Of a stretch of 64,000 bases of DNA, positions 4,568-64,000 are shown in pieces. The DNA is from Hyphomicrobiales bacterium (GTDB lineage: Bacteria; Pseudomonadota; Alphaproteobacteria; Rhizobiales; JANPGK01): positions 10,561-74,560 of the forward strand of contig JANPGK010000004.1 in the NCBI GenBank assembly GCA_031423895.1. Direction: 5' to 3'. Numbering within the stretch: position 1 is the stretch's first letter; each line of letters begins with the position of its first letter. The notes beneath the pieces are model-generated. The model was given only the letters and a program-made list of their open reading frames with translations, made no database searches and had not been told where the DNA came from. Made by a program: the position numbers and the translations under genes.

Positions 4568-4577
4568 TGCACTTAAG

Positions 4578-4760
4578 GCTCCCCACTTGTGGGGGAGCTG
4601 GCGAGCGTAGCGAGACTAAGGGGGGTAAGAAACGTTTTGCGAAGCAAATGAAACGATCCAGTGAATCGTTTCAAGTTTCGAACGCCCGTAGCGATGCGAA
4701 GGGCAGGGAAAGCAAAACAAGAAAACCCCTCCCCCTAACCCCCTCCCACAAGGGGAGAAG
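4578..4760. repeat. Composite family-B repeat (B1 hairpin module, spacer, B2 module), copy 1, intergenic between flbD and flhA
   Basis: The B1 module is GCTCCCCACTTGTGGGGGAGCTG..CTAAGGGGGGTAAG. The B2 module is AAAACCCCTCCCCCTAACCCCCTCCCACAAGGGGAG. The same modules recur at 38326, 47214 and 49339. The spacer holds further hairpins (GAAACGAT-N7-ATCGTTTC). Confidence 0.8.
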
Positions 4761-6911: not shown

Positions 6912-6945
6912 AGTTTAGGTGTGAAGCGGGGGCTAAGTTTCTGCT

Positions 6946-7024
6946 GTCATCCTGAACGTGAGTAAAGGATCTCCAGCCGATTGAGTTCAATCTCAAGGAG
7001 ATTCTTCGCTGTGCTCAGAATGAC
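6946..7024. repeat. Family-A palindromic repeat, copy 1 (intergenic, after flhA)
   Basis: Termini GTCATCCTGA....CAGAATGAC with internal AAGGATCTC / GGAGATTCTTC. Related copies are at 31184 and 44462. Confidence 0.75.
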
Positions 7025-7104
7025 AAGCGCCACGAATGTCAAAGCGTGATGAGTGAAATGACAACTTTCTTTCCATCCCATCAAAACCCTGTTAACCTCC
7101 CCCT

Positions 7105-10579: not shown

Positions 10580-10676
10580 CTGAAAAAATTAGCATACAAG
10601 GCAATCTCATTATTCATGATGGGATTGCCACCACGCCCGCGCTGCGCTATGGCTTGTCTCAAGAATAGGGCATCCC

Positions 10677-12699: not shown

Positions 12700-12735
12700 T
12701 GTTCCACGAATTAACGAGACAGCGCTCTTTATTTC

Positions 12736-12803
12736 GTCATCCTCGGGCTTGACCCGAGGATCTACTTAAAGTGGATGGTCGGATCAAGCCCGACTATGAC
12801 GGC
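12736..12803. repeat. Family-C repeat, copy 1 (intergenic between trpA and accD)
   Basis: Sequence GTCATCCTCGGGCTTGACCCGAGGATCTACTTAAA..GATGGTCGGATCAAGCCCGAC. A longer inverted copy is at 44698..44786. It shares the GTCATCCT terminus with family A. Confidence 0.7.
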
Positions 12804-16537: not shown

Positions 16538-17758
16538 ATGGAAATGGCGAAGACAATCTTGTTCCTGTGTAACGACCTTAGCTATTTCGCGGCACATCGC
16601 AACCATGTGAAGCGCTATGTGGGCACGCTTGGTTGGCATGTGAATATTGCGGCCGATGCAGGCGCAATGCCACCCAAATTATGGCCACAGAATTTCTATC
16701 CCATTTCTATCGTGCGGCGGTCGTTGTCGTCCCTCAAGGATGCGCGCGCCATGTTCAAAATTTGGCAGCTGCTGCGCGATTTAAAGCCTGATATTGTGCA
16801 TGCCATCACCATAAAGCCTGTGTTGATGGTCGGGTTTTTGATGCTGTTGCGAGTTATTTTATGCCGGCCTTCCATCCCCGCTGTCCTCACATTCCCTGGC
16901 TTGGGAGAGGTGTTTCGGCCTGTCCATTGCGAGCCTTCATTCATGGTAATGCTCAAACGCCGCGTGAGAAAATCATTGGTGAAAATGGCTTATCGGATGT
17001 TGGCACGGCTACCCAACTGCATCATGACCTTTGAAAATAAGGAGGATTGCGCCTATGCCATCCGCGAATTTGGCGTGCCGGCGCATCGTGCTGTGGCCAT
17101 TCATGGGGCCGGGGTAGATGTTGAAGAATTTCATGCAGAGCGATCTTTCGCTCCAGCGCTTCCACTGCGCATTGTGTTTGCAGCGCGCTTGTTGCGTTCA
17201 AAAGGGATTTTTGATTTTCTTGATGCGGTGAAGCTGGCGCGCGGGCAGGGAGCGCAATTTACTGCGCAGGTTGCGGGCATTCCCGACCATGGTAACCCCG
17301 ACAGTATCAGCCAATTGGAAATTGAAGCCATTAGTCGCACTGGTATGCTAGAATATTTGGGGTTTATCGACGACATGGCGCAATTATTGCGTGAAACCGA
17401 TATTGTGGTGCTGCCCACTTCATACCGCGAGGGGCTGCCCCGTGTGTTGATTGAGGCCGCAGCGGCTGGGTGCGCATTGTTGGCGTATAATACATCGGGC
17501 ATTGCCGATATTGTGAAACATGGCAGCAATGGCTATGTGGTGCAAACGGGCAATATTGCCGAGCTTGCCAAGCGCATGGTGCAATTGGTTGAGGCGCCCG
17601 CGCGCGTTCATAAAATGCAAAAAGCATCGCTCAAACTCATCCAAAATGGGCATTTTTCTGAACGTGCTGTGCAGAAACAATTTTTGAATGTGTATGAAAC
17701 GGCGTTTACGTTGAATCAGGCTGCCAGCCCCAAATCCAGTCCATTCGGCGGCGAATAA
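16538..17758 (+). CDS. Glycosyltransferase, GT4 (GT-B fold) family
   Basis: C-terminal EX7E-type region (PTSYREGLPRVLIEAAAAGCALLAYNTSGIADIVKHGSNGYVV). Confidence 0.8.
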   Translation: MEMAKTILFLCNDLSYFAAHRNHVKRYVGTLGWHVNIAADAGAMPPKLWPQNFYPISIVRRSLSSLKDARAMFKIWQLLRDLKPDIVHAITIKPVLMVGFLMLLRVILCRPSIPAVLTFPGLGEVFRPVHCEPSFMVMLKRRVRKSLVKMAYRMLARLPNCIMTFENKEDCAYAIREFGVPAHRAVAIHGAGVDVEEFHAERSFAPALPLRIVFAARLLRSKGIFDFLDAVKLARGQGAQFTAQVAGIPDHGNPDSISQLEIEAISRTGMLEYLGFIDDMAQLLRETDIVVLPTSYREGLPRVLIEAAAAGCALLAYNTSGIADIVKHGSNGYVVQTGNIAELAKRMVQLVEAPARVHKMQKASLKLIQNGHFSERAVQKQFLNVYETAFTLNQAASPKSSPFGGE

Positions 17759-18836
17759 TACCAGAACCTGAATATTTAATGATCAGATTGCGGATATGCG
17801 CAATCACCCCAGTTTGGTGATACACAACGCCATTATGGGCGGAGAGATCTTGCACGGCTTCTGTGCGCGGTTTTCGTGCCTGCTCAAACGCTTTAAAGGC
17901 GTCGATGAATGCATCCACTGAATTGGCGTTTTTGCATAATGACACCAAAGCGGCGGCATCTTCCAGTGCCATGCCCGCGCCTTGTGCAGCAAATGGCACC
18001 ATGGCATGGGCGGCGTCGCCCATAATCACAATTGGGCCTTCGCACCACGTTTTAAGCGGGGGCACGGTGGTGAGTGGCCAATAGGTCCATTTGGTGTTAT
18101 GCGCGAGAAACGCATTCAATTGTGCATGCGTAGCTGAGTGCGTGGGGGCATGCGCAGGCAGTGCAGGGGCGTGTTCAACCCATACAATATTGCGCATATT
18201 GTGCGCAATGAGCGGGTAGCTCACTACATGAGACTCTGGTGTTAAGTGTACATCCACCGTGTGATGCTGTGCGGGCAATAATGGCGCAAGACCACGCCAG
18301 GCAACTAGGCCCGTAGGTTGTGCCTCAACGCCAAATACAGTGCGTCGCATGGCAGAATTCACACCATCGGCACCAATAGCGGCGATGGCATGAATGGCTT
18401 CACCATTTTCAAACTGTGCCTCTACGCCAAATTCATTATGGGCAATTTTGGTCAGTTTATGCCCAAGTTTAAGCTCGATTAAGTCGTATTTTAATGCTTT
18501 TTCCAGCAAGGCAATTTGTAAATCTGCACGATGCAGCGCCCAAAATGGGGCATTATAATGGGCAGCCAGCGTGCGAATGTCTAAATATTGCAGCAGGCCG
18601 TGCCCATTGAACATCTGCACATAATCAATGCGGCTGGCGCGTGGCGCAACGATGTGTTCTAACCCCAAAGCCCGCAATGCATGCACCGCATTTGGGGAGA
18701 GCTGCAAGCCTGCGCCCACTTCAGAAAGCGCCTGAGCCTGCTCAGCAATTGTCACCTTATAACCCGCCTTTGCCAAGCCTATGGCTGTGGCCAAACCGCC
18801 GATACCCGCGCCAATAATTAAAATTCCATGTGGCAT
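17706..18836 (-). CDS. FAD-dependent aromatic-ring monooxygenase (salicylate hydroxylase/UbiH-like)
   Basis: N-terminal Rossmann motif ILIIGAGIGGLATAIGLAKAG and a late GDAAH motif (IMGDAAHAMVPFAAQGAGMALEDA). The 3' end overlaps the convergent GT gene by 53 nt. Confidence 0.8.
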   Translation of the reverse strand: MPHGILIIGAGIGGLATAIGLAKAGYKVTIAEQAQALSEVGAGLQLSPNAVHALRALGLEHIVAPRASRIDYVQMFNGHGLLQYLDIRTLAAHYNAPFWALHRADLQIALLEKALKYDLIELKLGHKLTKIAHNEFGVEAQFENGEAIHAIAAIGADGVNSAMRRTVFGVEAQPTGLVAWRGLAPLLPAQHHTVDVHLTPESHVVSYPLIAHNMRNIVWVEHAPALPAHAPTHSATHAQLNAFLAHNTKWTYWPLTTVPPLKTWCEGPIVIMGDAAHAMVPFAAQGAGMALEDAAALVSLCKNANSVDAFIDAFKAFEQARKPRTEAVQDLSAHNGVVYHQTGVIAHIRNLIIKYSGSGIIRRRMDWIWGWQPDST

Positions 18837-18857
18837 TGTGTGTCCTCAAGATGATTT

Positions 18858-18938
18858 AAGAGTTGAAATGCTCACGCTCCAACTCTTATTACGCTTCGCG
18901 GTTCGCTATTGCTCCTGCCAATTCATCAGATGAATTGG
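18858..18938. repeat. Family-D structured repeat, copy D1 (intergenic)
   Basis: Hairpin 1 is AAGAGTTG-N14-CAACTCTT. The core is ACGCTTCGCGGTTCGCTATTGCTCC. Hairpin 2 is CCAATTCAT-CAG-ATGAATTGG. Related units are at 42792, 57170 and 63969. Confidence 0.7.
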
Positions 18939-19016
18939 GCGCATTATCAATCAATATAATCGCTTGAAAACGCCTGCGCATTGATCCATATCATGCACAT
19001 ATGGAAATGAAGTGCA

Positions 19017-20042
19017 ATGAACTGGTATAAACGGTTATTTAGCGGCAGTAAAACTGAAGATGCCCCGATAGAGGCCGCTCAGCCACACGAACGTGCGCCG
19101 CTTTCATTTTTAGCGCGTATTGCCCGTGGCCTCACACGCTCATCCGGCCAAATCACTAATAAACTCACTAAGGTGTTCACCCATAAAAAGCTTGATGATG
19201 ATACGCTGCAGGAATTGGAAGACATTCTGATTGAGGCCGATTTGGGCGTGAATATGGCCGCGCAATTGGTGGCCGCACTCAAGGCAGATCGGTTCACCAA
19301 GGAAACCTCGGTTGAGCAGGTGAAAGTATTTTTGGCGGAACACATCACGCAGCAATTGGCGCCCTTTGCCCAGCCGATGAGGATTGCCGATGAACAGGCT
19401 GTACGGCATAAACCCCATGTGATTGTGATGGTGGGGGTGAATGGTACCGGCAAAACCACCACCACCGGCAAGTTGGCCTATATATTTGGCAAAGCGGGGC
19501 TGAAAACCGTGCTGGCAGCGGGGGATACCTTTCGCGCGGCGGCTGTGGCGCAGCTAGAGCGTTGGGGCGAGCGCGCCTTGGTAGAGGTTGTGGCGCTGGA
19601 GGAAGGCAAGGGCGATGCCGCCAGCGTGGCGTTTGCCGCGCATGAACAAGCCGTGGCGCAAGGTGCGGATGTATTGATTGTGGACACAGCAGGGCGCCTG
19701 CAGAATAAAGCCGATTTGATGGAAGAGCTGGCCAAGCTGGTGCGCGTGCTGAAAAAGCGCGATGCCAGCGCCCCGCATGAAGTGATTTTGGTGCTGGATG
19801 CCACAACTGGCCAAAATGCCATGGCACAGGCCGAAGTGTTTGCCAAAATTGTGGGGGTCACAGGGCTGATCATTACGAAATTAGACGGCACAGCGCGCGG
19901 TGGCATTGTGGTGCCCGTGGCCACCACACATAAGCTGCCCGTGCATTTTATTGGTGTGGGCGAAAGCATTGAAGACCTGCTGCCGTTTGAGGCACAAGCC
20001 TATGCGCGGAGCTTGGTAGGGCTAGGTGATATTCAGGGCTAA
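19017..20042 (+). CDS. ftsY: Signal recognition particle receptor FtsY
   Basis: SRP GTPase motifs GVNGTGKTTT, DTAGR and TKLDGTARGG. Confidence 0.9.
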   Translation: MNWYKRLFSGSKTEDAPIEAAQPHERAPLSFLARIARGLTRSSGQITNKLTKVFTHKKLDDDTLQELEDILIEADLGVNMAAQLVAALKADRFTKETSVEQVKVFLAEHITQQLAPFAQPMRIADEQAVRHKPHVIVMVGVNGTGKTTTTGKLAYIFGKAGLKTVLAAGDTFRAAAVAQLERWGERALVEVVALEEGKGDAASVAFAAHEQAVAQGADVLIVDTAGRLQNKADLMEELAKLVRVLKKRDASAPHEVILVLDATTGQNAMAQAEVFAKIVGVTGLIITKLDGTARGGIVVPVATTHKLPVHFIGVGESIEDLLPFEAQAYARSLVGLGDIQG

Positions 20043-31157: not shown

Positions 31158-31183
31158 GTGAGTCTTCATTCTCAATAATCGTT

Positions 31184-31265
31184 GTTATCCTGAGGCATCG
31201 CCGAAGGATCTCTTGCCGCCTCAGGCTCCGTTCAGGGAGATCCTTCACCTGCGGTTCAGAATGAC
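31184..31265. repeat. Family-A palindromic repeat, copy 2 (intergenic between mlaD and the RND gene)
   Basis: Sequence GTTATCCTGAGGCATCGCCGAAGGATCTC...GGGAGATCCTTCAC...TTCAGAATGAC. Degenerate extra terminus-like motifs flank it (TCATTCTCA at 31167, CTCAGGATAGC at 31275). Confidence 0.75.
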
Positions 31266-31290
31266 ATGAAAGTTCTCAGGATAGCTGCGA

Positions 31291-37833: not shown

Positions 37834-40800
37834 TCACGTAATTGTGTTGAGGGGGATGGATTCGATGTGCCCTGAATGAGTCCATACAATTCGCGCTTCA
37901 ATGGGGTGTGGCGTGGGCAGTGTGTGCAGCAATAATTGCGCATATAGCGCCAATTGTGCGGCATATTGGGGGGCTATCCCGCCCGTATAGGCTTCAGTTT
38001 TAAAGTCGATGATCACATGGGCTGTGGGCGTGATGGCCAGCAGATCAATACGGCCAGAAATCAATTGTTGAGTGCCATTAACGAGCAATTCTCCTAAAAT
38101 AGGTAGCTCGGCATATCGTTGCGGCGCATTCCACACATCGGCCAATGCGGGCAGGGCAGCGGTACGGCGCACTTCAGTGATGATACCCTGCGGCGCGCCT
38201 GCATGTGCGTGTGGGTCAGTTTTGGTGATATAGGCCACCAATTGCGCATCATCGGGCAGGTTGGGCACCAATTCGAGCAATTTGTGGATGATGGTACCAC
38301 GCAAGGCTGGGTTTTTGATAGACAGGCTCCCCACTTGTGGGGGAGCTGCTGAGTGTAACGAAGCTGAGGGGGGTATTCTTTCTTCATATTTAGATACGTT
38401 ACCCCCCTCAGTCACGCCCAACAAAAAATTGGGCGCGCCAGCTCCCCCACAAGTGGGGAGCATAAGTAAAGTAGCCGCTTCACGTACGCTTATGCTCGAT
38501 GGCAAAATAATGCTGTGCAAGGCCGCGGGGGGGGGCAGTTGCGCATCACACTCAGCGGCAGATATGGGCAATTGCGCGGTGGGCACAGTGAGGGGCGCAG
38601 TTGTGGTGCGCAAGCGTTTGAAGCTGCCGTGAGGCGTTTCGATCACCTCATGCGTGCCACCCCATGCCTGCACTGCGGCGTCTATTGCGGTGTACCAAGC
38701 GGTAGGCATTGCGATGTCGATGGTGTTTTTTTCCAGTGCATTGGCTTGCTTCTGCCCTGCAGCACCAAAAATAAACACTCTGTCGCGCGCGCGGGTGAGT
38801 GCCACATAGAGCAGCCGCATGGTTTCAGCATATTCTGCGGTGTTGTGCGCGTCTTTTGCCGTGGTGAAGGCGGGCGGCGCAGCGTGTTTATGCACGGTTA
38901 AAATTGGGGTGTTGCACTGCGTAAACAAAATTTTAGGCGCTTTTTGCTGGCGATAATCAAAGCAGCTGTCGGCCAATATCACCACGGGCGCTTCCAGCCC
39001 TTTGGCATTGTGCACGGTCAGAATGCGCACGGCGGTGCTGGCTTCGCTCATTTCGCGCTTTAAAATATGCGATGTAGTGCGGATCCACTGGGTGAAGCTG
39101 AACAGATCGGGCACATTTTGTTCCTCAAATTTTAGGATCAAGCCTAAAAATTCATCGAGAATTTCATGCACATCGGTGCCCATGCGTGTAGCAAACGCCA
39201 CACGCCCATTGGTGTTGCTGAGCATATGCATGAAAAATTCATAGGGTCGCGTGGTGAGCGCCAAGGCTTGCAAATGGTGCAATTGTGCTAATGCAGCGCC
39301 CCAATGTGGCTGCTCATGTGCGCGCGCCTCAAGCGCTTGCAACAACGTGCCGCTGCGCTGCGGCGCAATCGCAAGGATGTCGTCTTCATTGAGGCCCAAT
39401 ATTGGCGATTTCAGCGCGCAAGCCAGTTGCAAATCATCCTGCGGCAGCAGCACACAATCGGCCAACGCCAGCAGATCCTGCACGGCAATATTGTCGGTGA
39501 GGGTCAGCCGATCTGCACCGCCAACCGGGATGCCAGCATCGCGCAGTGCTTTCAGCAGCGTCTCAAATATGCCCTTACGCGCGCGCACCAATATTAAAAT
39601 ATCGCCTGCGGTGATGCGACGCGGGGCCCCGTTTTTGCCCTCCACCACATGAGGCGCGGTGAGTAGGTCTTGGATGGTATAAATAATTTGCTGCACCATT
39701 TTATGAATGGCATTGCGGGGCTGCTGCGGCGCCGTGGCGGCCTCCCATGTGAGTGTAATTTCGTGCTTGGTGTCGGGCAGGCACAGCGGCCACACATCCA
39801 CACAGCCAAAACTGCTGCGGCGCTGGGTTTCATGGATCACGGGTGTGGCATCGGTGGTGAGCTGCTGCGCACGCGGGCGCGGGGCAAACACACCATCCAC
39901 AAGCGCCAACACATCGGGAGTGGTGCGGAATGAAATTTGCAGCGGCTCTTCATGCCATTCCAGCTGCGCATCGGTAATTTTATGAGCAAATGTGGCCTTC
40001 ATATGGGCAAATCGCTCTGGCGCTGCGCCTTGAAAACGGTAAATTGATTGTTTCTCATCCCCCACCACAAACACAGTGCGGGTTTTAGCGCGGCCCGCAT
40101 CGCCCACAAAAAACTCACTCGAAAGTTGCCAGATGATGTCCCATTGCGCATGGCTGGTGTCTTGGGCTTCGTCCACAAGAATGTGATCGATCCCCCCATC
40201 GAGTTTGTAATGCACAAAGGCGGCATCGGCACGCAGCAATAAATTGCGGGTTTTGAGCACCAAATCGTCGAAATCGAGCATGCGTTGCGCGGTTTTGGCG
40301 GCTTGATAGTGTTTCATCACCTCAATGGCAACCGTAATGGCACTGAGGCTGGCCTCAAAGGCGCGGAAATTATACACATGGGTGCGCAGTTCCAACAATT
40401 GGGCGATGCAGGTCTCATAAAACAGGGCATGTTCAGGGAATTGTGTCACAATGTCCTTGGTGGGGGATCGTTTTTTCAGCAGCTCGCCTGATTGCGTTTC
40501 CACCAATTTCATCAAACCCGCAAACCGCGTGTTGAACGACGATGCGGCCAGGCTTTCCCGCAGATATGTGGCAATTTTGGTGTCGTGATCCTTGCCCGTT
40601 TCAAAAATTTGGCATAGCCAGTGCACCATTTTTGGATTTGTCAGCGGAATATCGCGCAGCTGTTTTGCCAGCGTTTCAAGGGTTTGCGTGGGCGGCACAT
40701 CTAGCGTGGCCCGTAGCGCCAATTCAAGCGATTGCGTGGTGTGGTTTAACATGAAGCTGAGTAGCGCATCGCGTTTAGAAAGCAGCCCTTGCAGGTGCAT

Positions 40801-41376
40801 TTCTAGCTGCGCACTGCCCAAAATACTGTGCAAACGCTTTAAATCTGCATGAAATGGCGAGCCAATTTGGCCCGCGCTGCGATAGAATTTTTGGAAAGCG
40901 CCCGCCCATAATGTTTGTATTTGGGGTTCATCTAGCAGTGTGAAACTTGTGGGCACAGGGGCTTCAAACGGAAATTGCTGCAGCACACGCTCGCAAAATG
41001 CATGAAGCGTTTGAATTTTCAAACCGCCAGGCGTTTCTAGCGCTGTGGCAAATAATCTGCGGGCATGGCGCAATTGGCGCGAGCTGGCAGGCGCATTGGT
41101 TAGGGTTTCAATGGCAATTTTCAACGCGGCATCATCTAAATTGACCCAAATTTTGAGGGTATCAAACACGCGTGCGGCCATTTCAGCTGCAGCGGCGCGG
41201 GTGAAGGTGAGGCACAGAATTTTTTCAGGAGGTGTGCCTGCCAATAGTAAGCGGATCACCCGCTGCGTGAGCACGTGCGTTTTGCCCGAGCCTGCATTGG
41301 CGGCCACCCACGCGCTGGCGTTTGTATGCGTGATCCGCGCGATTTTTTGGGCGTGGCTGCTCAAGGGGTTATTCAT
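37834..41376 (-). CDS. addA: Double-strand break repair helicase-nuclease AddA
   Basis: UvrD-type helicase motifs (AANAGSGKTHVLTQR, VDEAQDTS, ..) and a C-terminal PD-(D/E)XK nuclease region. I placed the start at ATG 41376, overlapping the addB stop by 8 nt. The longer ORF-track start at 41532 would run 160 nt into addB. Confidence 0.9.
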   Translation of the reverse strand: MNNPLSSHAQKIARITHTNASAWVAANAGSGKTHVLTQRVIRLLLAGTPPEKILCLTFTRAAAAEMAARVFDTLKIWVNLDDAALKIAIETLTNAPASSRQLRHARRLFATALETPGGLKIQTLHAFCERVLQQFPFEAPVPTSFTLLDEPQIQTLWAGAFQKFYRSAGQIGSPFHADLKRLHSILGSAQLEMHLQGLLSKRDALLSFMLNHTTQSLELALRATLDVPPTQTLETLAKQLRDIPLTNPKMVHWLCQIFETGKDHDTKIATYLRESLAASSFNTRFAGLMKLVETQSGELLKKRSPTKDIVTQFPEHALFYETCIAQLLELRTHVYNFRAFEASLSAITVAIEVMKHYQAAKTAQRMLDFDDLVLKTRNLLLRADAAFVHYKLDGGIDHILVDEAQDTSHAQWDIIWQLSSEFFVGDAGRAKTRTVFVVGDEKQSIYRFQGAAPERFAHMKATFAHKITDAQLEWHEEPLQISFRTTPDVLALVDGVFAPRPRAQQLTTDATPVIHETQRRSSFGCVDVWPLCLPDTKHEITLTWEAATAPQQPRNAIHKMVQQIIYTIQDLLTAPHVVEGKNGAPRRITAGDILILVRARKGIFETLLKALRDAGIPVGGADRLTLTDNIAVQDLLALADCVLLPQDDLQLACALKSPILGLNEDDILAIAPQRSGTLLQALEARAHEQPHWGAALAQLHHLQALALTTRPYEFFMHMLSNTNGRVAFATRMGTDVHEILDEFLGLILKFEEQNVPDLFSFTQWIRTTSHILKREMSEASTAVRILTVHNAKGLEAPVVILADSCFDYRQQKAPKILFTQCNTPILTVHKHAAPPAFTTAKDAHNTAEYAETMRLLYVALTRARDRVFIFGAAGQKQANALEKNTIDIAMPTAWYTAIDAAVQAWGGTHEVIETPHGSFKRLRTTTAPLTVPTAQLPISAAECDAQLPPPAALHSIILPSSISVREAATLLMLPTCGGAGAPNFLLGVTEGGNVSKYEERIPPSASLHSAAPPQVGSLSIKNPALRGTIIHKLLELVPNLPDDAQLVAYITKTDPHAHAGAPQGIITEVRRTAALPALADVWNAPQRYAELPILGELLVNGTQQLISGRIDLLAITPTAHVIIDFKTEAYTGGIAPQYAAQLALYAQLLLHTLPTPHPIEARIVWTHSGHIESIPLNTIT
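38326..38461. repeat. Inverted pair of family-B1 modules, located inside the addA coding sequence
   Basis: GCTCCCCACTTGTGGGGGAGCTG..CTGAGGGGGGTATTC, a 19-nt spacer, then the reverse-complement module GTTACCCCCCTCAG..GCTCCCCCACAAGTGGGGAGC. The AddA frame stays open across it. Confidence 0.8.
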
Positions 41377-44300
41377 CTTCGCCGCCTTCATCTTCCTCGG
41401 CCAGCACACCCCATTCGGCAATGCGCGCCAAATGGTCGTAATCGGTGTAGCTCGCGATTTTCCCGCCATATGGTTTGACATAAAACGGGTGGGTTGGGGT
41501 GCACATGGCCTGCAGCGCCACATGCACGCCATCGAGAATATTGGTGCGCATTTGCGCTAAGGCCTCGCCTTTGCCCATGGGCTGCGATGCTTTTAGTTGC
41601 GTGAAATTATCGGTGAATTTGATGTATTCCAGTGCATGTATGGAAGTGAGTGTGCCGTTTTTCTCAAAATTTTGGGCATGTGCCATTTCCCCCAGTAGCA
41701 CCAATTGTGGATAAAGCCCCGCATTCACTAGTTTTGTGGCGGGCACAACCCCTGTTTTAAAATCGCTTATCACAATGCCATCGCTGCGCTGTTCCACGCG
41801 GTCGGCCCGGCCATGAATGGTGAATTTCTCCCCCATAATATCCCACTGCATGCGATACGACACTTCGCAGCGTACTTTATGCGTATGCTGGCGGCGAGCC
41901 TGTTCAAACGCAATGATGCCATCGACCACGCCATGTAATTGCAGCCGCCATAAAATCCGTTCTTTATCTGGCAAAACGCTGGTGTGGGTTTCAATCTCAG
42001 TCAATACGCTGTTGTGCAGCGCCTGTGTGTCGTCGCTCCACTGTGTGGCCGCCAGCTCAACAATTGTGTGGATGAGGGCCCCGCGAATGCGCGCATCGGG
42101 CAATTGGCCAATGGGTTCAAGAGGCTTCAAGCCCAACACATATTCGGCATAAATGGCATAAGGGTTGTGTAGCAGGGTTTCAATTTTGGTGACAGAAAGC
42201 GTTTTAGGCCGCAATGCCACAGCAGGGCAAGGGGTTGGTGCGGCAATGGGCGCAAAATTATGCGTGGCGTTGTGCGCGCGCACCTGTGCCAGCACTGCAT
42301 TGCCACGGCTGCGCCACGGTTCAAAGCTATGTGTGCCCATCACCGCCGAAATGCGCTGCAAAAACCGCGATGGCAGTGTTGGTGCGCCGCCCTCGCGTAC
42401 CGATCGCGTGAGAATAATGTGGTTTTGCCCCATAAATTGTGCAAAATCATGCGCTGAAAGCGCAATGCGCCGCTCTGGCATGGGCAAACCAATGGCACTG
42501 CGGAGTGCTCGCCCCAGCCACACATCGGGCATATTGGCTGGCGGCCACATACCTTCATTGAGCCCACCCAAAATCACCGTGTCGAATGTGTGCAAACGCG
42601 CTTCCAACGCGCCCATCACCACAATGCGGCTGTTGTGCAGGGGGGGCGGTAATGTGGGCGCCATGTTCAAAATTTGGGTGAGAATGGCGGGGTATGCCGC
42701 GAATGGGATTAAAAATTGCGTGGCTTGGCCAGTATGCGCATCGTGAATGGCTTGCAACACTGTGGTGTGAGCGGTGTCGGCATCATAGTTTAAAACTTGG
42801 CATGCTGTCGCGCCAAGTTGAAGACACGCTTCGCGGTTCGCTATCGCTCCTTCCAAATTTTGAGAAAATTTGGGGATATCTTCATCCTGTACAACGGGCA
42901 CGAGCGCGGCAAAAATTTGGGCAAATTGCTCATTGTAGGTGGCAAAAGGTTGGTGCGGATTATCGGCAGTTTGCAAGGCCAAAAATGGTGCAATTGCCGC
43001 CAAATAGCCTTCTAAAACCGCCTGCGCGTTGTGCCAATCCTCTAAGGTGAGTGATTTTTGCGCGTGGGTCAGCTGATGCGGCTTTGCACCTTCGCAGTGA
43101 GCATTTTGCCATGTTTCAAAATTATGAGCAAGCGCCGCATTCCAATCGCCAGCAGGGGCAATGCCGCGAAATAGCGCGCATTCCAGCGCGGTAACAGCTG
43201 TTTTTAGATCCAAAACGCCTTCAACCTGCACCATAGGGTGACGCAAAAATGCCAGTGCGGCTGCGGGAGATTGTGGCGCGGCTAGCGCATCAAGCAACAG
43301 GCGGGCGGCACGCCCTGGCATGGTGTGCAACAATGGCAACCCGCCAGAATCGGGCACATCAACTCCAAATGCCTGCAAATGCGCACACACGCGCCGCGCT
43401 AGGGTGCGGTTTGGCGTGATCAGTGCCGCAGTTTCATGAGGTGTGGCGGCTGTTAGGCGTAATTGCAGCGCAATGCTCAGCGCTTCCTCTTCCTCATGTG
43501 CAGCCTCTAAAAGCGTGACATGCGCGGTGGCGTTCATCAATTCTGCATCGCATTGCTGCACGCGCCATGAATGCCATTCATCGGTGGTGCTGGCGGGCTG
43601 CAAGGCATAAGACACAATGGTTTCGAGCAGCGGTGGCGGGGTTATACGCCCTAAAATCGGCACATCGGCAGGGTGGGCAATATGCAGAGTAGTGAGCAGC
43701 CGCTTGAGGTGAATTTGCGGGTGAGTTTCGGCCTGCCCAGCAGCGCCAATGGCCGCCCAAGCGGTTACGCTCAGCTGCGTGTCAAGCCCCGGAATGATGA
43801 GCGTGCCATATGGGCTGCGGGCAATCGCGGCCAATAGCTCCGCAGTGGCAGGCGTTGAGCCAGTGGAGCCCGCCGCGATGACGCGGCCAAATTGTCCCGC
43901 CTCAATGCGCTGCGCCATGGCATGGATGGCTTCATCCCAGGCCACAATTGGGTCTTGCAGGCTATGGTCCTGCAAAAATTGCGGCCATTGCTGTAGTACT
44001 ATGTTCAAAAAACCGAGGTTGAGCTCGTGGCTGCCCAAAAATTCGGTGGGAATCATGTCTGCAATTGCGTGCGCACTCACATGCTCAAGCGTAAGCTGGT
44101 CAAGCGTATTGGCCAAATCTTGCGCCAGCGCAACACATTCAGCATGGGAAATCTGTATAAAAATTGGGTCGTTTGGGTTGTGCCATTTTGGTGTGTGGCC
44201 TGCATTCACCGCCGCATATACCGCCTGTTTCCATTGCAAAATTAAGCGTGCCAGCACCCATACGCGCTGGGTGGGTGTAACCGTCGTTTCTGATATATCT

Positions 44301-44668
44301 TCATGTTCCAGCCCAATTTCACCCACATCCCGCACGGGAATGATGCGTGGCAAAATTAGGGCTTGCGTACCAGCTTGCCGCAATAATTCCAGCTCAAAAT
44401 TTTTGCATGCACGCCGAGTGGGGAAAAATATGGTGGTATTGGCGAGTGCGAATGGGCTTATGTCATCCTGAGGCTGCGCCGAAGGATCTCCCAGAATGTG
44501 AGCACAATCGGAAGGAGATCCTTCACTCCCGTCTTCGCTACGCTTCGCCGAGGCAAGTCGTTCAGGATGACAGCTGCTGTTGGTTTGCCCACCCAACACA
44601 AACTGTGCCAATGTTTCAAAAAACGGCCGCGACGCGGGGATGGTGTAGATGTTGGGTGCGTGAGGCAT
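41369..44668 (-). CDS. addB: Double-strand break repair protein AddB (alphaproteobacterial type)
   Basis: About 1100-aa ORF upstream of and overlapping addA. The N-terminus is MPHAPNIYTIPASRPFFETLAQ...FFPTRRA and there is a C-terminal PD-(D/E)XK-like region. Start ATG 44668 (ORF-track start 44719 lies inside repeat C2). Confidence 0.9.
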   Translation of the reverse strand: MPHAPNIYTIPASRPFFETLAQFVLGGQTNSSCHPERLASAKRSEDGSEGSPSDCAHILGDPSAQPQDDISPFALANTTIFFPTRRACKNFELELLRQAGTQALILPRIIPVRDVGEIGLEHEDISETTVTPTQRVWVLARLILQWKQAVYAAVNAGHTPKWHNPNDPIFIQISHAECVALAQDLANTLDQLTLEHVSAHAIADMIPTEFLGSHELNLGFLNIVLQQWPQFLQDHSLQDPIVAWDEAIHAMAQRIEAGQFGRVIAAGSTGSTPATAELLAAIARSPYGTLIIPGLDTQLSVTAWAAIGAAGQAETHPQIHLKRLLTTLHIAHPADVPILGRITPPPLLETIVSYALQPASTTDEWHSWRVQQCDAELMNATAHVTLLEAAHEEEEALSIALQLRLTAATPHETAALITPNRTLARRVCAHLQAFGVDVPDSGGLPLLHTMPGRAARLLLDALAAPQSPAAALAFLRHPMVQVEGVLDLKTAVTALECALFRGIAPAGDWNAALAHNFETWQNAHCEGAKPHQLTHAQKSLTLEDWHNAQAVLEGYLAAIAPFLALQTADNPHQPFATYNEQFAQIFAALVPVVQDEDIPKFSQNLEGAIANREACLQLGATACQVLNYDADTAHTTVLQAIHDAHTGQATQFLIPFAAYPAILTQILNMAPTLPPPLHNSRIVVMGALEARLHTFDTVILGGLNEGMWPPANMPDVWLGRALRSAIGLPMPERRIALSAHDFAQFMGQNHIILTRSVREGGAPTLPSRFLQRISAVMGTHSFEPWRSRGNAVLAQVRAHNATHNFAPIAAPTPCPAVALRPKTLSVTKIETLLHNPYAIYAEYVLGLKPLEPIGQLPDARIRGALIHTIVELAATQWSDDTQALHNSVLTEIETHTSVLPDKERILWRLQLHGVVDGIIAFEQARRQHTHKVRCEVSYRMQWDIMGEKFTIHGRADRVEQRSDGIVISDFKTGVVPATKLVNAGLYPQLVLLGEMAHAQNFEKNGTLTSIHALEYIKFTDNFTQLKASQPMGKGEALAQMRTNILDGVHVALQAMCTPTHPFYVKPYGGKIASYTDYDHLARIAEWGVLAEEDEGGEDE
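42792..42873. repeat. Family-D structured repeat, copy D2, inside the addB coding sequence
   Basis: Hairpin 1 is AAAACTTGG-N12-CCAAGTT. The core is ACGCTTCGCGGTTCGCTATCGCTCC. Hairpin 2 is CCAAATTTT-GAG-AAAATTTGG. Confidence 0.7.
44462..44571. repeat. Family-A palindromic repeat, copy 3, inside the addB coding sequence (N-terminal region)
   Basis: GTCATCCTGAGGCTGCGCCGAAGGATCTC...GGAGATCCTTCAC...TTCAGGATGAC, with perfect 10-bp terminal inverted repeats. Confidence 0.75.
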
Positions 44669-44697
44669 GTGGTTTTCACGTCCATAATACGTCATGG

Positions 44698-44786
44698 TCG
44701 GGCTAGTAGACCCGACCATCTTCTTTTAAAGTAGATCCTCGGCCATCCGCTTTCGCCCGAAAGCGGGCTACAGCGAGACAAGCGCC
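44698..44786. repeat. Family-C repeat, copy 2 (inverted relative to copy 1), immediately upstream of addB
   Basis: The reverse complement reads GTCATCCTCAGG...GAGGATCTACTTTAAA..GATGGTCGGGTCTACTAGCCCGAC, matching 12736..12803 apart from a larger internal hairpin segment. Confidence 0.7.
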
Positions 44787-46521: not shown

Positions 46522-47298
46522 TCATGTAATTTTGTCAAATCTCAAATAACAACTCCTTCGCCCCTCGCGCCGTGCTTTGGCTTCATAGCGGGTTTGCACC
46601 CAGCCCTCATAAGGTGTGAGGAAATCAGCGGCGGTGTGCGCTGGCCATGTGAACGCGGGGTGTTCGCGGATGTGCTGCAAGGTCCACGCCGCATAGCTAT
46701 CAATATCGGTGGCACAGCGAAATTGGCCGCCCAGCACCAAAATACGGGCGAATTCATTCAGCGCATCGATGGAGACAAAGCGCCGCTTCCAATGGCGTTT
46801 TTTGTGCCATGGGTCGGGGTAAAACAGGTGCACATGCGAGAATTGCGCATCTGGCAGGGTACGCAGCAAAAAATGTGCATCGTCATTATAAAAGCGGATG
46901 TTGGGCAGGTGTTCATCCAAGCAATCGCGCACAGCGGCGGCATATCCATTCAAAAACGGCTCCACGCCGATGAAGCCCACAGTGGGGTTATTGCGGGCGC
47001 GGTTAAGCAAGTGCTCGCCCGAACCAAAGCCAATTTCCAGCTCATAGCGTTCGAATGGTTGGCCAAATAGCTGTGATAGATCGAGCATTTGCCCATGCGT
47101 AAACGTAATATCTACAGCGCCTTGCTGGGCGATGGCGTCTTTTTTGCCAAGCGATAGCGCCTTGCCTTTGCAGCGGCCATAAAACTTGCGGATGGTTTCG
47201 GGTGGGGGTGAAGATTCTCCCCTCCCCTTGCGGGAGGGGGTAGGGGGAGGGGTTTTCTCATCAGCATTCGCTGAGTATATGTTTGGAATATTATCCAT
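46522..47298 (-). CDS. trmB: tRNA (guanine-N7)-methyltransferase TrmB with a repeat-encoded N-terminal extension
   Basis: Core motifs: EIGFGSGEHL, FYPDPWHKKRHWKRRF. The first ~38 aa (..EKTPPPTPSRKGRGESSPPP..) are encoded by the family-B2 repeat module. Confidence 0.85.
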   Translation of the reverse strand: MDNIPNIYSANADEKTPPPTPSRKGRGESSPPPETIRKFYGRCKGKALSLGKKDAIAQQGAVDITFTHGQMLDLSQLFGQPFERYELEIGFGSGEHLLNRARNNPTVGFIGVEPFLNGYAAAVRDCLDEHLPNIRFYNDDAHFLLRTLPDAQFSHVHLFYPDPWHKKRHWKRRFVSIDALNEFARILVLGGQFRCATDIDSYAAWTLQHIREHPAFTWPAHTAADFLTPYEGWVQTRYEAKARREGRRSCYLRFDKIT

Positions 47299-47354
47299 TA
47301 AGAATACCCCCCTCAGTCACGCTATGCGTGACAGCTCCCCCGCAGGTGGGGAGC
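47214..47354. repeat. Composite family-B repeat (B2, spacer, B1 in reverse orientation), copy 3, straddling the trmB start codon
   Basis: B2 spans 47214..47257 (TCTCCCCTCCCCTTGCGGGAGGGGGTAGGGGGAGGGGTTTT). B1 spans 47300..47354 (AAGAATACCCCCCTCAG..GCTCCCCCGCAGGTGGGGAGC). The trmB ATG (47298) lies in the spacer between them. Confidence 0.8.
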
Positions 47355-47361
47355 CGTTTTC

Positions 47362-49310: not shown

Positions 49311-50698
49311 TTTTAAGAAATATGTGCCTTTACTTTACCTCTCCCCTTGTGGGAGAGGGTGGCGCGAAGCGCCGGGTGAGGGGTTTTCTTTCTAGCGCCG
49401 TGAAGAATACCCCCCTCAGTCTCGCAAGCGCTCGACAGCTCCCCCACAAGTGGGGAGCATTAAGTATATGCTTATTTATTCTATGTATTTTTATTTTCCC
49501 CGCCCACGCGCAACAAAGTGGCGACCCGCAATTTCAGGCTTTTGTTCAGCAAAAAATCTGGCCAAAAGCCCAAGCCGCAGGCATTGATCAAGCCACTTTC
49601 GCGGCGGCGTTTGAGGATGTGACCTCGCCCGACCGCTCTATTTTGGGCACGGCCAAAAAGCAGCCCGAATTTGCCAGCACAGTGGGCAATTATGTGGGCA
49701 AACGCGTTTCGCCTGCGCGCATTCAAAATGGGGCAAAAAAGCTGGAAGATGGCCGCATTCACAACGCGTTGAGCCAAATCGGCAAAAAATATAATGTGGA
49801 TCCATTTGTTGTGCTCTCCATTTGGGGTATTGAATCCTCCTATGGCGCGGCGCTCAACCCCGAAACGCTGAAAAACGTGTTTCGCTCGATGGCCACTTTG
49901 GCGTATGCAGACAGTGCGCGACGCGAGTTTGGCTTTGAACAAACCATTGCAGCGCTGAAAATTGTGAAGCGTGGCTATGCTGAAGTGCATGAAATGCGCG
50001 GCTCGTGGGCGGGCGCAATGGGGCACACGCAATTCATACCCACAAGTTATTTGGTGTATGCGCAAGATTTTGACGGCGATGGACACCGCGATATTTGGAA
50101 CAATATTGGCGATGCATTGGCCTCAACCGCCGCACATTTGGCCACATCCGAAGGCAATGCCCCTACATGGATTGACGAAGAGCCATGGGGCGTGGAAGTG
50201 GTGGTGCCGCAGGGCTTTAATTATGCCAATGCGTATGAAAATGGTGGATTTGAGGAAAAATCGATCACAGCATGGCAACAGCTTGGCATTCGTGCGGCTA
50301 GCGGCGGCCTGCCAAACTCACGCGGCGAGGCTACGCTCTATGTGCCATCGGGCGTAAATGGCCCTGCATTTTTGCTATACCCGAATTTTAAGGTGATTAA
50401 GCGCTATAATTTCTCAAATGCCTATGCGTTGGCAGTGGGGTTGCTCGCCGACAGGTTGCGCGGTGAAAATGTGCCAGTACGATCATGGCCAAGCGATGAC
50501 GACCAACTCACGCGCATTGCCGATGTGAAACTGCTGCAAAGCCGCCTCACACAATTGGGCCATTATAATGGCAAAATTGATGGGTTCGTGGGGCCCAAGG
50601 TCTATGCCGCCACCCATGCGTTTCAAGCGCGTGCGGGCATTTCCCCTGCTGATGGGCTGCCTACGCAAGAAGTCTTGGAAGCGTTGCGCGATAAATAG
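49307..50698 (+). CDS. Lytic murein transglycosylase (MltB/SLT_2-like) with a C-terminal peptidoglycan-binding domain; start codon uncertain
   Basis: Catalytic region ..LSIWGIESSYG..., WAGAMGHTQFIPTSY. The C-terminal PG_binding_1-like repeat is LQSRLTQLGHYNGKIDGFVGPKVYAATHAFQ. The signal peptide (..LSICLFILCIFIFPAHA/QQ) follows the repeat-encoded residues. An in-frame GTG at 49400 is an alternative start. Confidence 0.8.
   Translation: MILRNMCLYFTSPLVGEGGAKRRVRGFLSSAVKNTPLSLASARQLPHKWGALSICLFILCIFIFPAHAQQSGDPQFQAFVQQKIWPKAQAAGIDQATFAAAFEDVTSPDRSILGTAKKQPEFASTVGNYVGKRVSPARIQNGAKKLEDGRIHNALSQIGKKYNVDPFVVLSIWGIESSYGAALNPETLKNVFRSMATLAYADSARREFGFEQTIAALKIVKRGYAEVHEMRGSWAGAMGHTQFIPTSYLVYAQDFDGDGHRDIWNNIGDALASTAAHLATSEGNAPTWIDEEPWGVEVVVPQGFNYANAYENGGFEEKSITAWQQLGIRAASGGLPNSRGEATLYVPSGVNGPAFLLYPNFKVIKRYNFSNAYALAVGLLADRLRGENVPVRSWPSDDDQLTRIADVKLLQSRLTQLGHYNGKIDGFVGPKVYAATHAFQARAGISPADGLPTQEVLEALRDK
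49339..49458. repeat. Composite family-B repeat (B2 plus B1, reverse orientation), copy 4, inside the 5' end of the transglycosylase ORF
   Basis: CTCTCCCCTTGTGGGAGAGGGTGGCGCGAAGCGCCGGGTGAGGGGTTTTC, a 13-nt spacer, then GAAGAATACCCCCCTCAG..GCTCCCCCACAAGTGGGGAGC. Confidence 0.8.
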
Positions 50699-56640: not shown

Positions 56641-57474
56641 TCACACCCGATAATACGCCTGCCATGCCGTTTCAGCTTCTGTAATCGATTCTGGCATGCC
56701 CACATGCATCCACAGCCCCTCAAGCCGCACGCCGTGCAGGCGCTCTTGCGCAATCAGCGTGTTGAAAATGCGGTTGAGCGAAAATGCTGACCCCACGTCA
56801 TATTCATGAAACAGACTGGCCTTTAATATCGCCACGCCTGTATACACAAACGGCGCCACATCCACGCCCGCACGGCGGGTAATTGTGCCATCTTGCGCCA
56901 GATGAAAGTCGCCGCGCCCTTCATAGCCTGTGGTGTGGGGCGTTGCGGCCAATAGCAGTACCGCATCCATGCGGGCGGGGTCGAAATAGTGCCGCAAGCG
57001 CTGTAGGCCGCTACTGGCGCCATCAATCCACACTGTGTCGGAATTGCATAGATAAAACACATCGCGGTTGATGAGTGGCAGGGCCTTGGCTATGCCGCCG
57101 CCTGAATCGAGAATGTGGGTACGCTCGTCGGAGATAACAATTTCTATCTGGGGGATTTCCTCCCCCTTAGCGCCGCTATTATGTGCGGCGCCCCCCTCCA
57201 CGCTGCGCGCTGCGCTAGCGCTTGTGCCAAAATCACTGAGTGATTTTGGGTCTTGCTGACCTTGTAGCAAATGCGCTTCAAGCATGTCGGCCAAATAATG
57301 CACATTCACCACGGCGCGGTGCACACCTGCAGCGGCCAGCCTGTCGAGTGTGTGGTCAATCATCGCTCTGCCCATGACAGGCACCATGGGTTTGGGCATA
57401 TGCAAGGTGATGGGGCGCATGCGGGTGCCAAGCCCTGCGGCCAAAATCATTGCGGTGTCGATTTCAGCCACCAT
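56641..57474 (-). CDS. murU: Sugar-phosphate nucleotidyltransferase, MurU-like (N-acetylmuramate alpha-1-phosphate uridylyltransferase family)
   Basis: N-terminus AMILAAGLGTRMRPITLHMPKPMVPV. It sits beside the TsaE/AmgK-like fusion, as in other alphaproteobacteria. It carries a ~30-35 aa low-complexity insert encoded by repeat D3. Confidence 0.75.
   Translation of the reverse strand: MVAEIDTAMILAAGLGTRMRPITLHMPKPMVPVMGRAMIDHTLDRLAAAGVHRAVVNVHYLADMLEAHLLQGQQDPKSLSDFGTSASAARSVEGGAAHNSGAKGEEIPQIEIVISDERTHILDSGGGIAKALPLINRDVFYLCNSDTVWIDGASSGLQRLRHYFDPARMDAVLLLAATPHTTGYEGRGDFHLAQDGTITRRAGVDVAPFVYTGVAILKASLFHEYDVGSAFSLNRIFNTLIAQERLHGVRLEGLWMHVGMPESITEAETAWQAYYRV
57170..57249. repeat. Family-D structured repeat, copy D3 (diverged), inside the murU-like coding sequence
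   Basis: Hairpin 1 is GCGCCGC-N8-GCGGCGC. The core ACGCTGCGCGCTGCGCTAGCGCTTG matches the D2 core at 19 of 25 positions with no gaps. Hairpin 2 is CCAAAATCACT-G-AGTGATTTTGG. Confidence 0.6.
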
Positions 57475-61723: not shown

Positions 61724-63034
61724 TTATACCACCTTGCGCATTTCGTGAAGGAAATGGTTCACCTCGTTCTTGAGTGTGGTGGATTCTTCAGATAAATTGC
61801 CTGCAGAGTGCAGTAAATCTGTTGCCGCACAAAGGGTTTGCCCCGCAGCATGAGACACATCATGAATATGTGTTGTGACTTCTTGCGCGCCAATAGACGC
61901 TTGCGTAACGCTATTGGCGATTTCTGAAATGGCATGCATTTGCTCTTGCATCGCATGTGCAATTGAGGCTGTGGTGCTATTGACATCCCTCACGATATTC
62001 TCAACTTCCACAAAATGATCTGCCGCTTGGTGTGTTGCGTTTTGGATCCCGCTAATTTGTGCAGCAATATCGCTGGTGGCGCGGCCTGTTTGTGCGGCGA
62101 GCGCCTTTACTTCTTGCGCAACAACAGCAAATCCTTTGCCTGCCTCGCCAGCGCGCGCCGCTTCAATCGTGGCATTGAGGGCCAATAAGTTGGTTTGGTC
62201 AGAAATATCGGCGATGAGCTTCACTACAGTCCCGATTTTTGTAGCGGCTTCGCTCAGTCCGCGCACAGAGTCTTGCGTTTCGATGATACGAGATACAGCA
62301 TTTTGAGTAATAGAGCTTGTGTGTTGCATTTGCTTCTCAATGCAGGTGACAGAGGCAGATAATTGTTCTGCTGCTGCGGCAACAGTTTGCACATTTGCAG
62401 ATGCCTCTTCAGCGGCGGCGGCTACTATTGTCGCTTTTTGGCTGGTGTCGTTTGCGGTGCTGTCCATTTGTCCAGCGGTGCTTGAAAGCGCGTCGGAAGC
62501 GGCCCCTAATGATGAAACGATATTATGCACTTGGGTTTCAAAATGGTTTGTCACACGACGAAATTCCGCAACCTTATTGCCCATCATGTTGATTGCGCAA
62601 TTCATGGCTTTGGCCCCATGAAGCAATGCGCCAACCATCCCCACCTCAATAATTGGGCGCGTGTAACGATTATGTGAAATGGCGGTCATGGCGGCAGTGG
62701 TTTCCCGCACATACGAGTCCGAGCGGTCGATGAGCTCATTGATAGCGCGCATTAAATTGCCAAAATTACCACGTTCATCAATTCCAATGACACGGGCTTC
62801 ATAATCACCCTGCGCAACAGCTAGGACAATATTTTGCAGGCGCTCTATTTTCTTATCGCTCACATTGATATACCAAAAGCTGGCCGCGCTTAATAGCACA
62901 CCAAGAATAAGGAATACAGACATGGATAATGTGCTCAGCACGCCCATTTCATGACCGATTAAATTGGCGAATATTGTCACTATGCTCAGTGTGACACTCA
63001 AGTGCGCCTTAGAGAGAGAGGATAAATTCATCAT
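61724..63034 (-). CDS. Methyl-accepting chemotaxis protein: TM hairpin, HAMP and signalling domain (Aer/CetA-like output module)
   Basis: Two closely spaced TM helices with no periplasmic domain, a HAMP-like linker, and the conserved MCP hairpin tip (..[35 protein letters not shown]..). I preferred the ATG-ATG at 63034/63031 over the TTG at 63064. Confidence 0.8.
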
Positions 63035-63883: not shown

Positions 63884-63968
63884 CGCGTATCCTCCATACA
63901 GAATTCTGCTTGGTGGGCCGCCTTGAGAAGGGGTGGCGCATATCGCAGGGTCATATACTTTTGGGATT

Positions 63969-64000
63969 AAAAACTTGGAATCGCTGCGCGCCAAGTTTTA
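63969..64000. repeat. Family-D repeat, copy D4 (hairpin 1 only; truncated by the window end)
   Basis: AAAAACTTGG-AATCGCTGCGCG-CCAAGTTTT is nearly identical to hairpin 1 of D2 (AAAACTTGG-CATGCTGTCGCG-CCAAGTT). Confidence 0.5.

Follow-up and report, generated by a model that had tools for sequence, protein, structure and literature searches.

How can a hairpin-forming DNA repeat lie within the coding sequence of addB and leave its reading frame intact? This question is raised by a 64,000-nt stretch of contig JANPGK010000004.1 from a Hyphomicrobiales bacterium, referred to below as the window, and all coordinates are window positions. A short repeat, named D, occurs there between genes as well as inside addB, where an initial annotation had placed a complete two-hairpin copy that adds some 27-31 codons to the protein. 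The interpretation of this D unit as an in-frame insertion in addB is supported by the analysis reported here. D is probably a small, non-autonomous interspersed repeat that inserted in addB, is translated through and is tolerated by the protein.

Anatomy and copies of the D repeat

The complete unit expected within the AddB open reading frame (ORF) was found at positions 42789 to 42876 of the + strand, and is read on the minus strand as approximately residues 616-644 of the ORF. Hairpin 1 (42794-42819, with arms AACTTGGC and GCCAAGTT) is followed by a short spacer, by the 26-nt core ACGCTTCGCGGTTCGCTATCGCTCCT (42826-42851) and by hairpin 2 (42853-42873), which reads CCAAATTTT-GAG-AAAATTTGG. 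D units measure ~87 nt and consist of two independent hairpins of 8-10 bp and a non-palindromic core, which is conserved and holds two tandem GCTNCGC heptamers. A second full copy is located in non-coding DNA, as the initial annotation had also noted, at 18855-18941 (+), between the start of a monooxygenase gene (17706-18836, -) and the divergent ftsY gene (19017-20042, +). The third full copy, more diverged, lies in frame within a murU-like gene at 57165-57252 (+). Two partial copies bring the family to three full and two partial members in 64 kb. One of them, just upstream of trpB (10597-10672, +), has hairpin 1 and a core with a 1-nt deletion and lacks hairpin 2, and the other is cut by the end of the window (63967-64000, +), with hairpin 1 as AAAACTTGG..CCAAGTTTT. 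The latter is extended by 8 bases in a contig of an independent assembly (Logan, described below), where it runs on into the beginning of the core as ...AAGTTACGC.

The similarity between the copies is not due to chance. Self-BLAST aligned 18840-18939 with 42774-42874 over 101 nt (E = 1.6e-9), and the pattern of the 26-nt core has two matches in the window and none in shuffled sequences. A covariance model was derived from the full copies, three in number, and run over the window. It gave 101.5 bits for the intergenic copy, 95.8 bits for the addB copy, 83.4 bits for the murU copy and 17.3 bits (E = 0.003) for the partial copy upstream of trpB, and no other significant match in the window beyond the D copies. 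The stems vary in sequence from copy to copy yet remain paired: when the three full copies are aligned with MAFFT, 95% of the stem cells are standard pairs and 7 of the 14 pairs are changed on both sides. This level of pairing and covariation was reached by none of 500 shuffles, and only 27-57% of the positions were paired in controls with a slid register. The intergenic copy carries stops in all six frames, and the addB and murU copies are each open in three frames.

The + strand carries all five copies (at 10597, 18855, 42789, 57165 and 63967). Of the 32 two-kilobase bins only 5 do not have a positive GC skew, and the cumulative curve climbs almost throughout the window; if the + strand is taken as the leading strand, the five copies share one orientation relative to replication, a uniformity that is not significant with five copies only. 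Two further observations concern D-like sequences. A perfect 9-bp hairpin with a D-core-like loop, ACGCTTGCGTAACG, is present at 61888-61919 in a chemoreceptor (methyl-accepting chemotaxis protein, MCP) gene and is a weak match to the covariance model (10.7 bits, E = 0.24). A 26-nt stretch of a glycosyltransferase gene (16740-16765) is identical at 24 of 26 positions to 42652-42677 in addB (..GCGCCATGTTCAAAATTTGG). This addB stretch lies ~110 nt from the D unit and ends in a motif resembling the 3' arm of hairpin 2.

The D family was also searched for outside the window. The 18-nt core had 18 matches in the GTDB species genomes, all of them chance matches with no similarity in the flanks, and neither the degenerate 31-nt core pattern nor the 19-nt core had any match in the JGI metagenomes. 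No Rfam family was matched at gathering thresholds in the whole window, nor at E values up to 1 by the addB and intergenic D copies. A search for terminator-like sites gave none, and promoter-like sites were no more frequent than expected by chance.

Insertions in AddB and MurU compared with their homologues

The host gene is AddB of the alphaproteobacterial type. The longest ORF (41369-44719, -) is free of stops through 1116 codons, D unit included, and matches TIGR02786 with 695.6 bits (cut-off 486.5) over profile positions 32-1023 of 1024. The same product is described in the public gene call (P0001) as one protein of 1099 aa that starts 17 codons later, at 44668, and addA is directly downstream (37834-41532). 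A perfect 26-nt palindrome, ATGGTCGGGCTAGTAGACCCGACCAT, is found at the upstream ATG of the longest ORF (44694-44719), the public start lying 17 codons downstream. Across 89 aligned AddB sequences, the query among them, 75 columns are invariant, including the nuclease D-x-K region. The peptide encoded across the D unit is DEDIPKFSQNLEGAIANREACLQLGATACQVLNYD (AddB residues 612-646), and FSQNLEGAIANR and EACLQLGATACQVLNYDADTAHTTVLQAIHDAHTGQATQFLIPFAAYPAILTQILNMAPTLPPPLHNSR are the predicted tryptic peptides that span the unit.

A MAFFT alignment of 120 AddB sequences, the query and 119 homologues, was used to locate the additional residues. Query residues 614-636 correspond to a gap in all 119 homologues. 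Between the conserved anchors the query has 100 residues and the homologues 57-82 (median 71), so that the excess of 29 codons, or ~87 nt, equals one D unit and agrees with the 27-31 codons proposed at first. Only two runs of at least 9 residues are private to the query in the whole alignment. The first (residues 614-636, DNA 42812-42880) is the D unit, and the second (residues 45-53 and 64-87, DNA 44459-44587) is an unrelated palindromic repeat, family Y, described below; both thus coincide with DNA repeats that have intergenic copies as well. As the closest AddB other than itself is 34% identical, this comparison rests on distant homologues. An exhaustive HMMER search with residues 480-760, in which relatives more than 50% identical would be hidden within the same cluster, returned only the query itself below E = 1e-30, and the next match was 39% identical.

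An AlphaFold model of AddB, calculated from 89 sequences, had a mean predicted local distance difference test (pLDDT) value of 86.1 and a predicted template modelling score (pTM) of 0.84. The C-terminal tail aside, pLDDT values below 50 were restricted to the two private insertions, and the D insertion appears in the model as a low-confidence stretch flanked by confident helices, as would be expected of a tolerated insertion. The best fold match of the model was Bacillus subtilis AddB (3u4q_B, TM score 0.59), and sequence-profile mapping of AddB onto solved AddAB structures aligned the nuclease motif alone, to AdnA. We infer from these data that addB is intact and that the extra residues would form an excursion between confident helices. 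The D segment is probably translated and may be surface-exposed, and AddB would still be working.

The second genic copy provides an independent comparison. The murU-like gene (56641-57474, -) codes for an N-acetylmuramate-1-phosphate uridylyltransferase, and its inserted segment (57142-57252, +) comprises the D unit and an adjacent small hairpin, GGGGGA..TCCCCC (57150-57166). In an alignment of 60 MurU sequences one insertion is private to the query, of 34 aa (residues 78-111, DNA 57142-57243), and 58 homologues (232-267 aa) lack it. The solved MurU structure 4y7t can be aligned with residues 8-74 and 121-269 of the query and has only 12 residues of its own in between, and the insertion is the only segment of the MurU model with pLDDT below 50. 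The reading frame of the murU copy differs from that of the addB copy and the peptides are unrelated, which indicates that the DNA and not the peptide is the repeated entity, as the initial annotation had argued from the intergenic copy. Taken together, addB and murU are a clean, replicated example of in-frame insertion by one repeat.

A closer MurU relative (P0242, 63% identical) was found on a syntenic Logan contig, L020, from sample SRR33557406, with the matching gene order histidine kinase, amgK, murU. For none of the genes tested did another relative as close come to light. P0242 carries a 41-aa insertion at the same MurU site (L020 4966-5106), the DNA of which has kept hairpin 2 as CGCATCAC-TGC-GTGATGCG, with three doubly compensated pairs, as well as the adjacent hairpin, here GGGGGGA..TCCCCCC; hairpin 1 is shortened and the core is degenerate. 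The two insertions are 33% identical in aa and 45% in nt, compared to 69% and 69% for the rest of the gene. In their nt alignment 46 of 70 stem positions and 32 of 50 non-stem positions are conserved. As stems are not better conserved than non-stems in this pair, selection on the structure is considered no more than a possibility.

Proposed origin of the insertion and alternative explanations

The simplest account of these observations is that addB received a D copy, by insertion or by copying, in a helical region of variable length. Transcription and translation would then run through the copy, with a gain of ~29 residues between conserved blocks and no damage to the remainder of AddB, and it would persist as a nearly neutral insertion because its length is a multiple of three, it is free of stops and it lies in a tolerant region. 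Genic copies would accordingly be the survivors of a frame filter, and intergenic copies would be free to carry stops. The simplest explanation for the maintenance of the perfect stems would be either intrastrand templated correction of quasi-palindromes or weak selection on structure.

Several points weigh against this account. No close addB orthologue devoid of the element was found among the homologues, of which the best is 34% identical, and none of them offers an empty site for comparison. The region around the site is moreover already length-variable among homologues (57-82 residues), and for both reasons the boundaries of the insertion are known only to within a few residues. By inspection, neither terminal inverted repeats nor a target duplication were seen at the D copies: there is no complementarity between the ends, TTTAAAAC... 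and ...ATTTGGGG, and the inverted repeats are the internal hairpins, the left ends (TTTAA..) and right ends (..TTGGG) have unrelated flanks, and direct repeats are absent from the flanks of all three full copies. No transposase or REP-associated tyrosine transposase (RAYT) was found among the ORFs of the window. Finally, the copies examined are five in number and come from a single 64-kb window.

The junctions were also inspected in contigs produced by an independent assembler (Logan, source sample SRR20217181). Logan gives the addB-to-D junctions on both sides: L019 holds hairpin 1 and the core, L021 holds the core and hairpin 2, each half of addB ends there, and the two overlap by 29 nt at 42827-42855. 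At the D copy of the window end the Logan contig stops 4 nt into the core, and at both the murU copy and the intergenic copy (18855) Logan contigs continue unbroken. The break at the addB core is what is expected of a branching node if another copy shares ~30 identical bases. Since the other Logan contig ends are not all at recognisable repeats, this indication of copy number is only suggestive and was given little weight.

One alternative is a mis-joining of the repeat by the metagenome assembler, or decay of addB to a pseudogene. The genome is probably metagenome-assembled (a single contig of 147,728 bp), and the Logan contigs break on the D core, so that the two sides of the core are joined in the original assembly only. 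However, both addB halves end independently in their own half of D and overlap by 29 nt, and the joined frame is open, keeps the invariant residues and matches TIGR02786 over its full length, which makes an artefact or a pseudogene extremely improbable. It is just as improbable that the D unit is left untranslated, by programmed ribosomal bypassing or by removal from the mRNA. Stable hairpins within the coding sequence are indeed a feature of bypass elements, such as those of T4 gene 60 and the mitochondrial 'byp' elements. However, bypassing or excision needs neither a maintained frame nor freedom from stops, and all four genic repeat copies of the window, those of the other families included, have both, in contrast to the intergenic D copy, none of whose six frames is open; ~87 nt is in addition too small for a self-splicing intron, and no Rfam family was matched. 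Slightly less remote, though still very unlikely, is the view that the segment is native AddB sequence of a lineage-specific variable region and that the other copies are addB fragments spread by duplication or gene conversion. The length variability of the site and the lack of an empty-site orthologue among the homologues found are compatible with it. Against it, the five copies share the same hairpin-core-hairpin anatomy with different stems, no other copy is accompanied by flanking addB sequence, the length excess corresponds to one unit, and the murU copy is in another frame and older than the split from the 63% identical relative.

The most serious alternative, itself rather unlikely, is that D is a functional nucleic-acid module, i.e. 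a row of hairpins in mRNA or DNA under selection within the coding sequence, of which the peptide is a by-product. It may act as a translational (ribosome) pause or as an RNA-processing signal, or the GCTNCGC-GCTNCGC core may be bound by a host or domesticated protein. The murU insertion shared by the query and P0242 at the same site argues for such a role, as its hairpin 2, hairpin 1 and extra hairpin are all in register despite the divergence of the peptide, hairpin 2 has the three doubly compensated pairs, and the folding z-scores are -6.2 and -3.2. So do the covariation of the stems between paralogous copies, the common strand of the five copies and the fact that the three full copies have, if transcribed, the same sense relative to the nearest gene. 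If this alternative were true, the stems would have been kept by compensatory change over a long divergence while the peptide drifted, and a cis-acting role would be implied. On the other hand, the murU stems are no better conserved than the non-stems, neither an Rfam family nor a terminator or promoter signal above chance was found, and the support comes from one orthologous pair and five copies. Perfect palindromes can furthermore be maintained by template-switch correction without selection. An inserted, translated and tolerated repeat is therefore preferred as the explanation of the D unit in addB.

Other repeats of the window and comparison with known systems

D is not the only repeat found in frame in this region. 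Family Y consists of palindromic repeats of ~100 nt, unrelated to D, with the ends TGTCATCCTGA...TCAGGATGACA around GGATCTCC/GGAGATCC. One copy (44442-44587) is in frame in the N-terminus of addB (ORF residues 45-87), where it encodes '..SSCHPERLASAKRSEDGSEGS..', and intergenic copies are located at 6926-7025 and 31175-31285. The addB copy of family Y has a 29-nt internal extra segment with TTCGCTACGCTTCGC (44534-44548), which resembles a circularly permuted piece of the D core, and ACGCTTCGC occurs three times in the window, the other two occurrences being D cores. Family X is represented in frame in addA (38326-38461) by GCTCCCCACTTGTGGGGGAGC ... GGGGGGTA, a near-perfect palindrome of 136 nt with a DNA fold of -50.1 kcal/mol (z = -9.9), and by further copies at 4571-4627, 47295-47355 and 49339-49466. 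The AddA linker that contains it has 85 residues between the anchors, compared to 43-67 in 118 homologues, and is thus 18-42 residues longer. In total, 64 kb contain four in-frame insertions from three families, three of them in addA and addB, two genes (37834-44719) that make up ~11% of the window. Large proteins with tolerant linkers may account for this distribution, as may a weakly selected operon.

The remainder of the window is ordinary chromosome, with flagellar genes, trpBA, argG, leuC, RND efflux, mla and motAB genes, and contains no tRNA, rRNA or Rfam family. Between trpA and the gene that follows it there is an imperfect palindrome of 67 nt (12735-12801), with 81% self-complementarity. 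The closest named homologues of AddA and AddB are of Hyphomicrobiales type, with 34-38% identity. Among ~5.8 billion proteins, the best non-self identity was 34% for AddB, 38% near full length for AddA (40-43% where ~70% of the query was covered) and, apart from the single 63% relative, 55% for MurU. Judged by these identities, the host lineage appears to be an isolated, deep-branching alphaproteobacterium.

The best-documented cases of such in-frame repeats are those of Rickettsia and Wolbachia. The window points to the same habit, at high density, in a deep-branching alphaproteobacterium with flagellar and amino-acid biosynthesis genes. Such repeats call for caution in the annotation and homology modelling of these genomes. 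The AddAB and MurU insertions are a natural set of tolerated insertion sites, and the murU orthologue pair is a small test case of what keeps genic hairpins, selection or templated repair.

The palindromic elements of Rickettsia and Wolbachia are found in ORFs with the frame kept, at sites shared by orthologues, and their peptides lie in exposed regions (PMC3767692, PMC10969869). Like D, the Rickettsia palindromic elements (RPEs), RPE-1 to RPE-3 especially, and the Wolbachia elements are short, interspersed, hairpin-forming repeats of Alphaproteobacteria. D resembles them in having both intergenic (18855, 10597) and genic (addB, murU) copies, with open, stop-free frames in the latter. The insertions are gapped in 119 AddB and 58 MurU homologues and form the lowest-confidence segments of the models, outside the conserved fold core, and a murU orthologue carries an insertion at the same site. 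An RPE is, however, one long palindrome of 100-150 bp, whereas D has ~87 nt with two hairpins and a conserved non-palindromic core; the stems of D differ between copies, and its two genic copies are read in different frames as unrelated peptides. The hosts appear to differ as well; RPEs are found in Rickettsiales, and the host of D has flagellar genes, tryptophan and arginine biosynthesis genes (trpBA, argG) and leuC. The analogy with Rickettsia elements drawn at the outset thus holds for behaviour.

Repetitive extragenic palindromes (REPs) of enterobacteria and pseudomonads, with their bacterial interspersed mosaic elements (BIMEs), share with D a modular hairpin-linker-hairpin organization, dispersed copies and the lack of target-site duplications. 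In REPs the hairpin is conserved and the linkers vary, whereas the reverse is seen in D, in which 7 of 14 stem pairs are changed on both sides. REPs are associated with RAYT transposases and are extragenic by definition, whereas two D copies are intragenic. Miniature transposable elements with inverted repeats (MITEs), such as ERIC, RUP/BOX/SPRITE, BRE and Nezha-type elements, are also small, non-autonomous stem-loop repeats that are sometimes located in coding sequence, and ERIC, RUP/BOX/SPRITE and BRE elements have been reported in frame within ORFs (PMC3184786). D differs from MITEs in that the two features which define them, terminal inverted repeats and target-site duplications, are not visible at the ends of its copies. 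Families X and Y combine, as D does, intergenic copies with in-frame genic copies in the addAB operon; being classical long single palindromes of 100-136 nt, they are nearer to the RPE form, and D is the structurally unusual one of the three. D is a new repeat family in a new host lineage, but the phenomenon itself is of a known kind and not categorically new.

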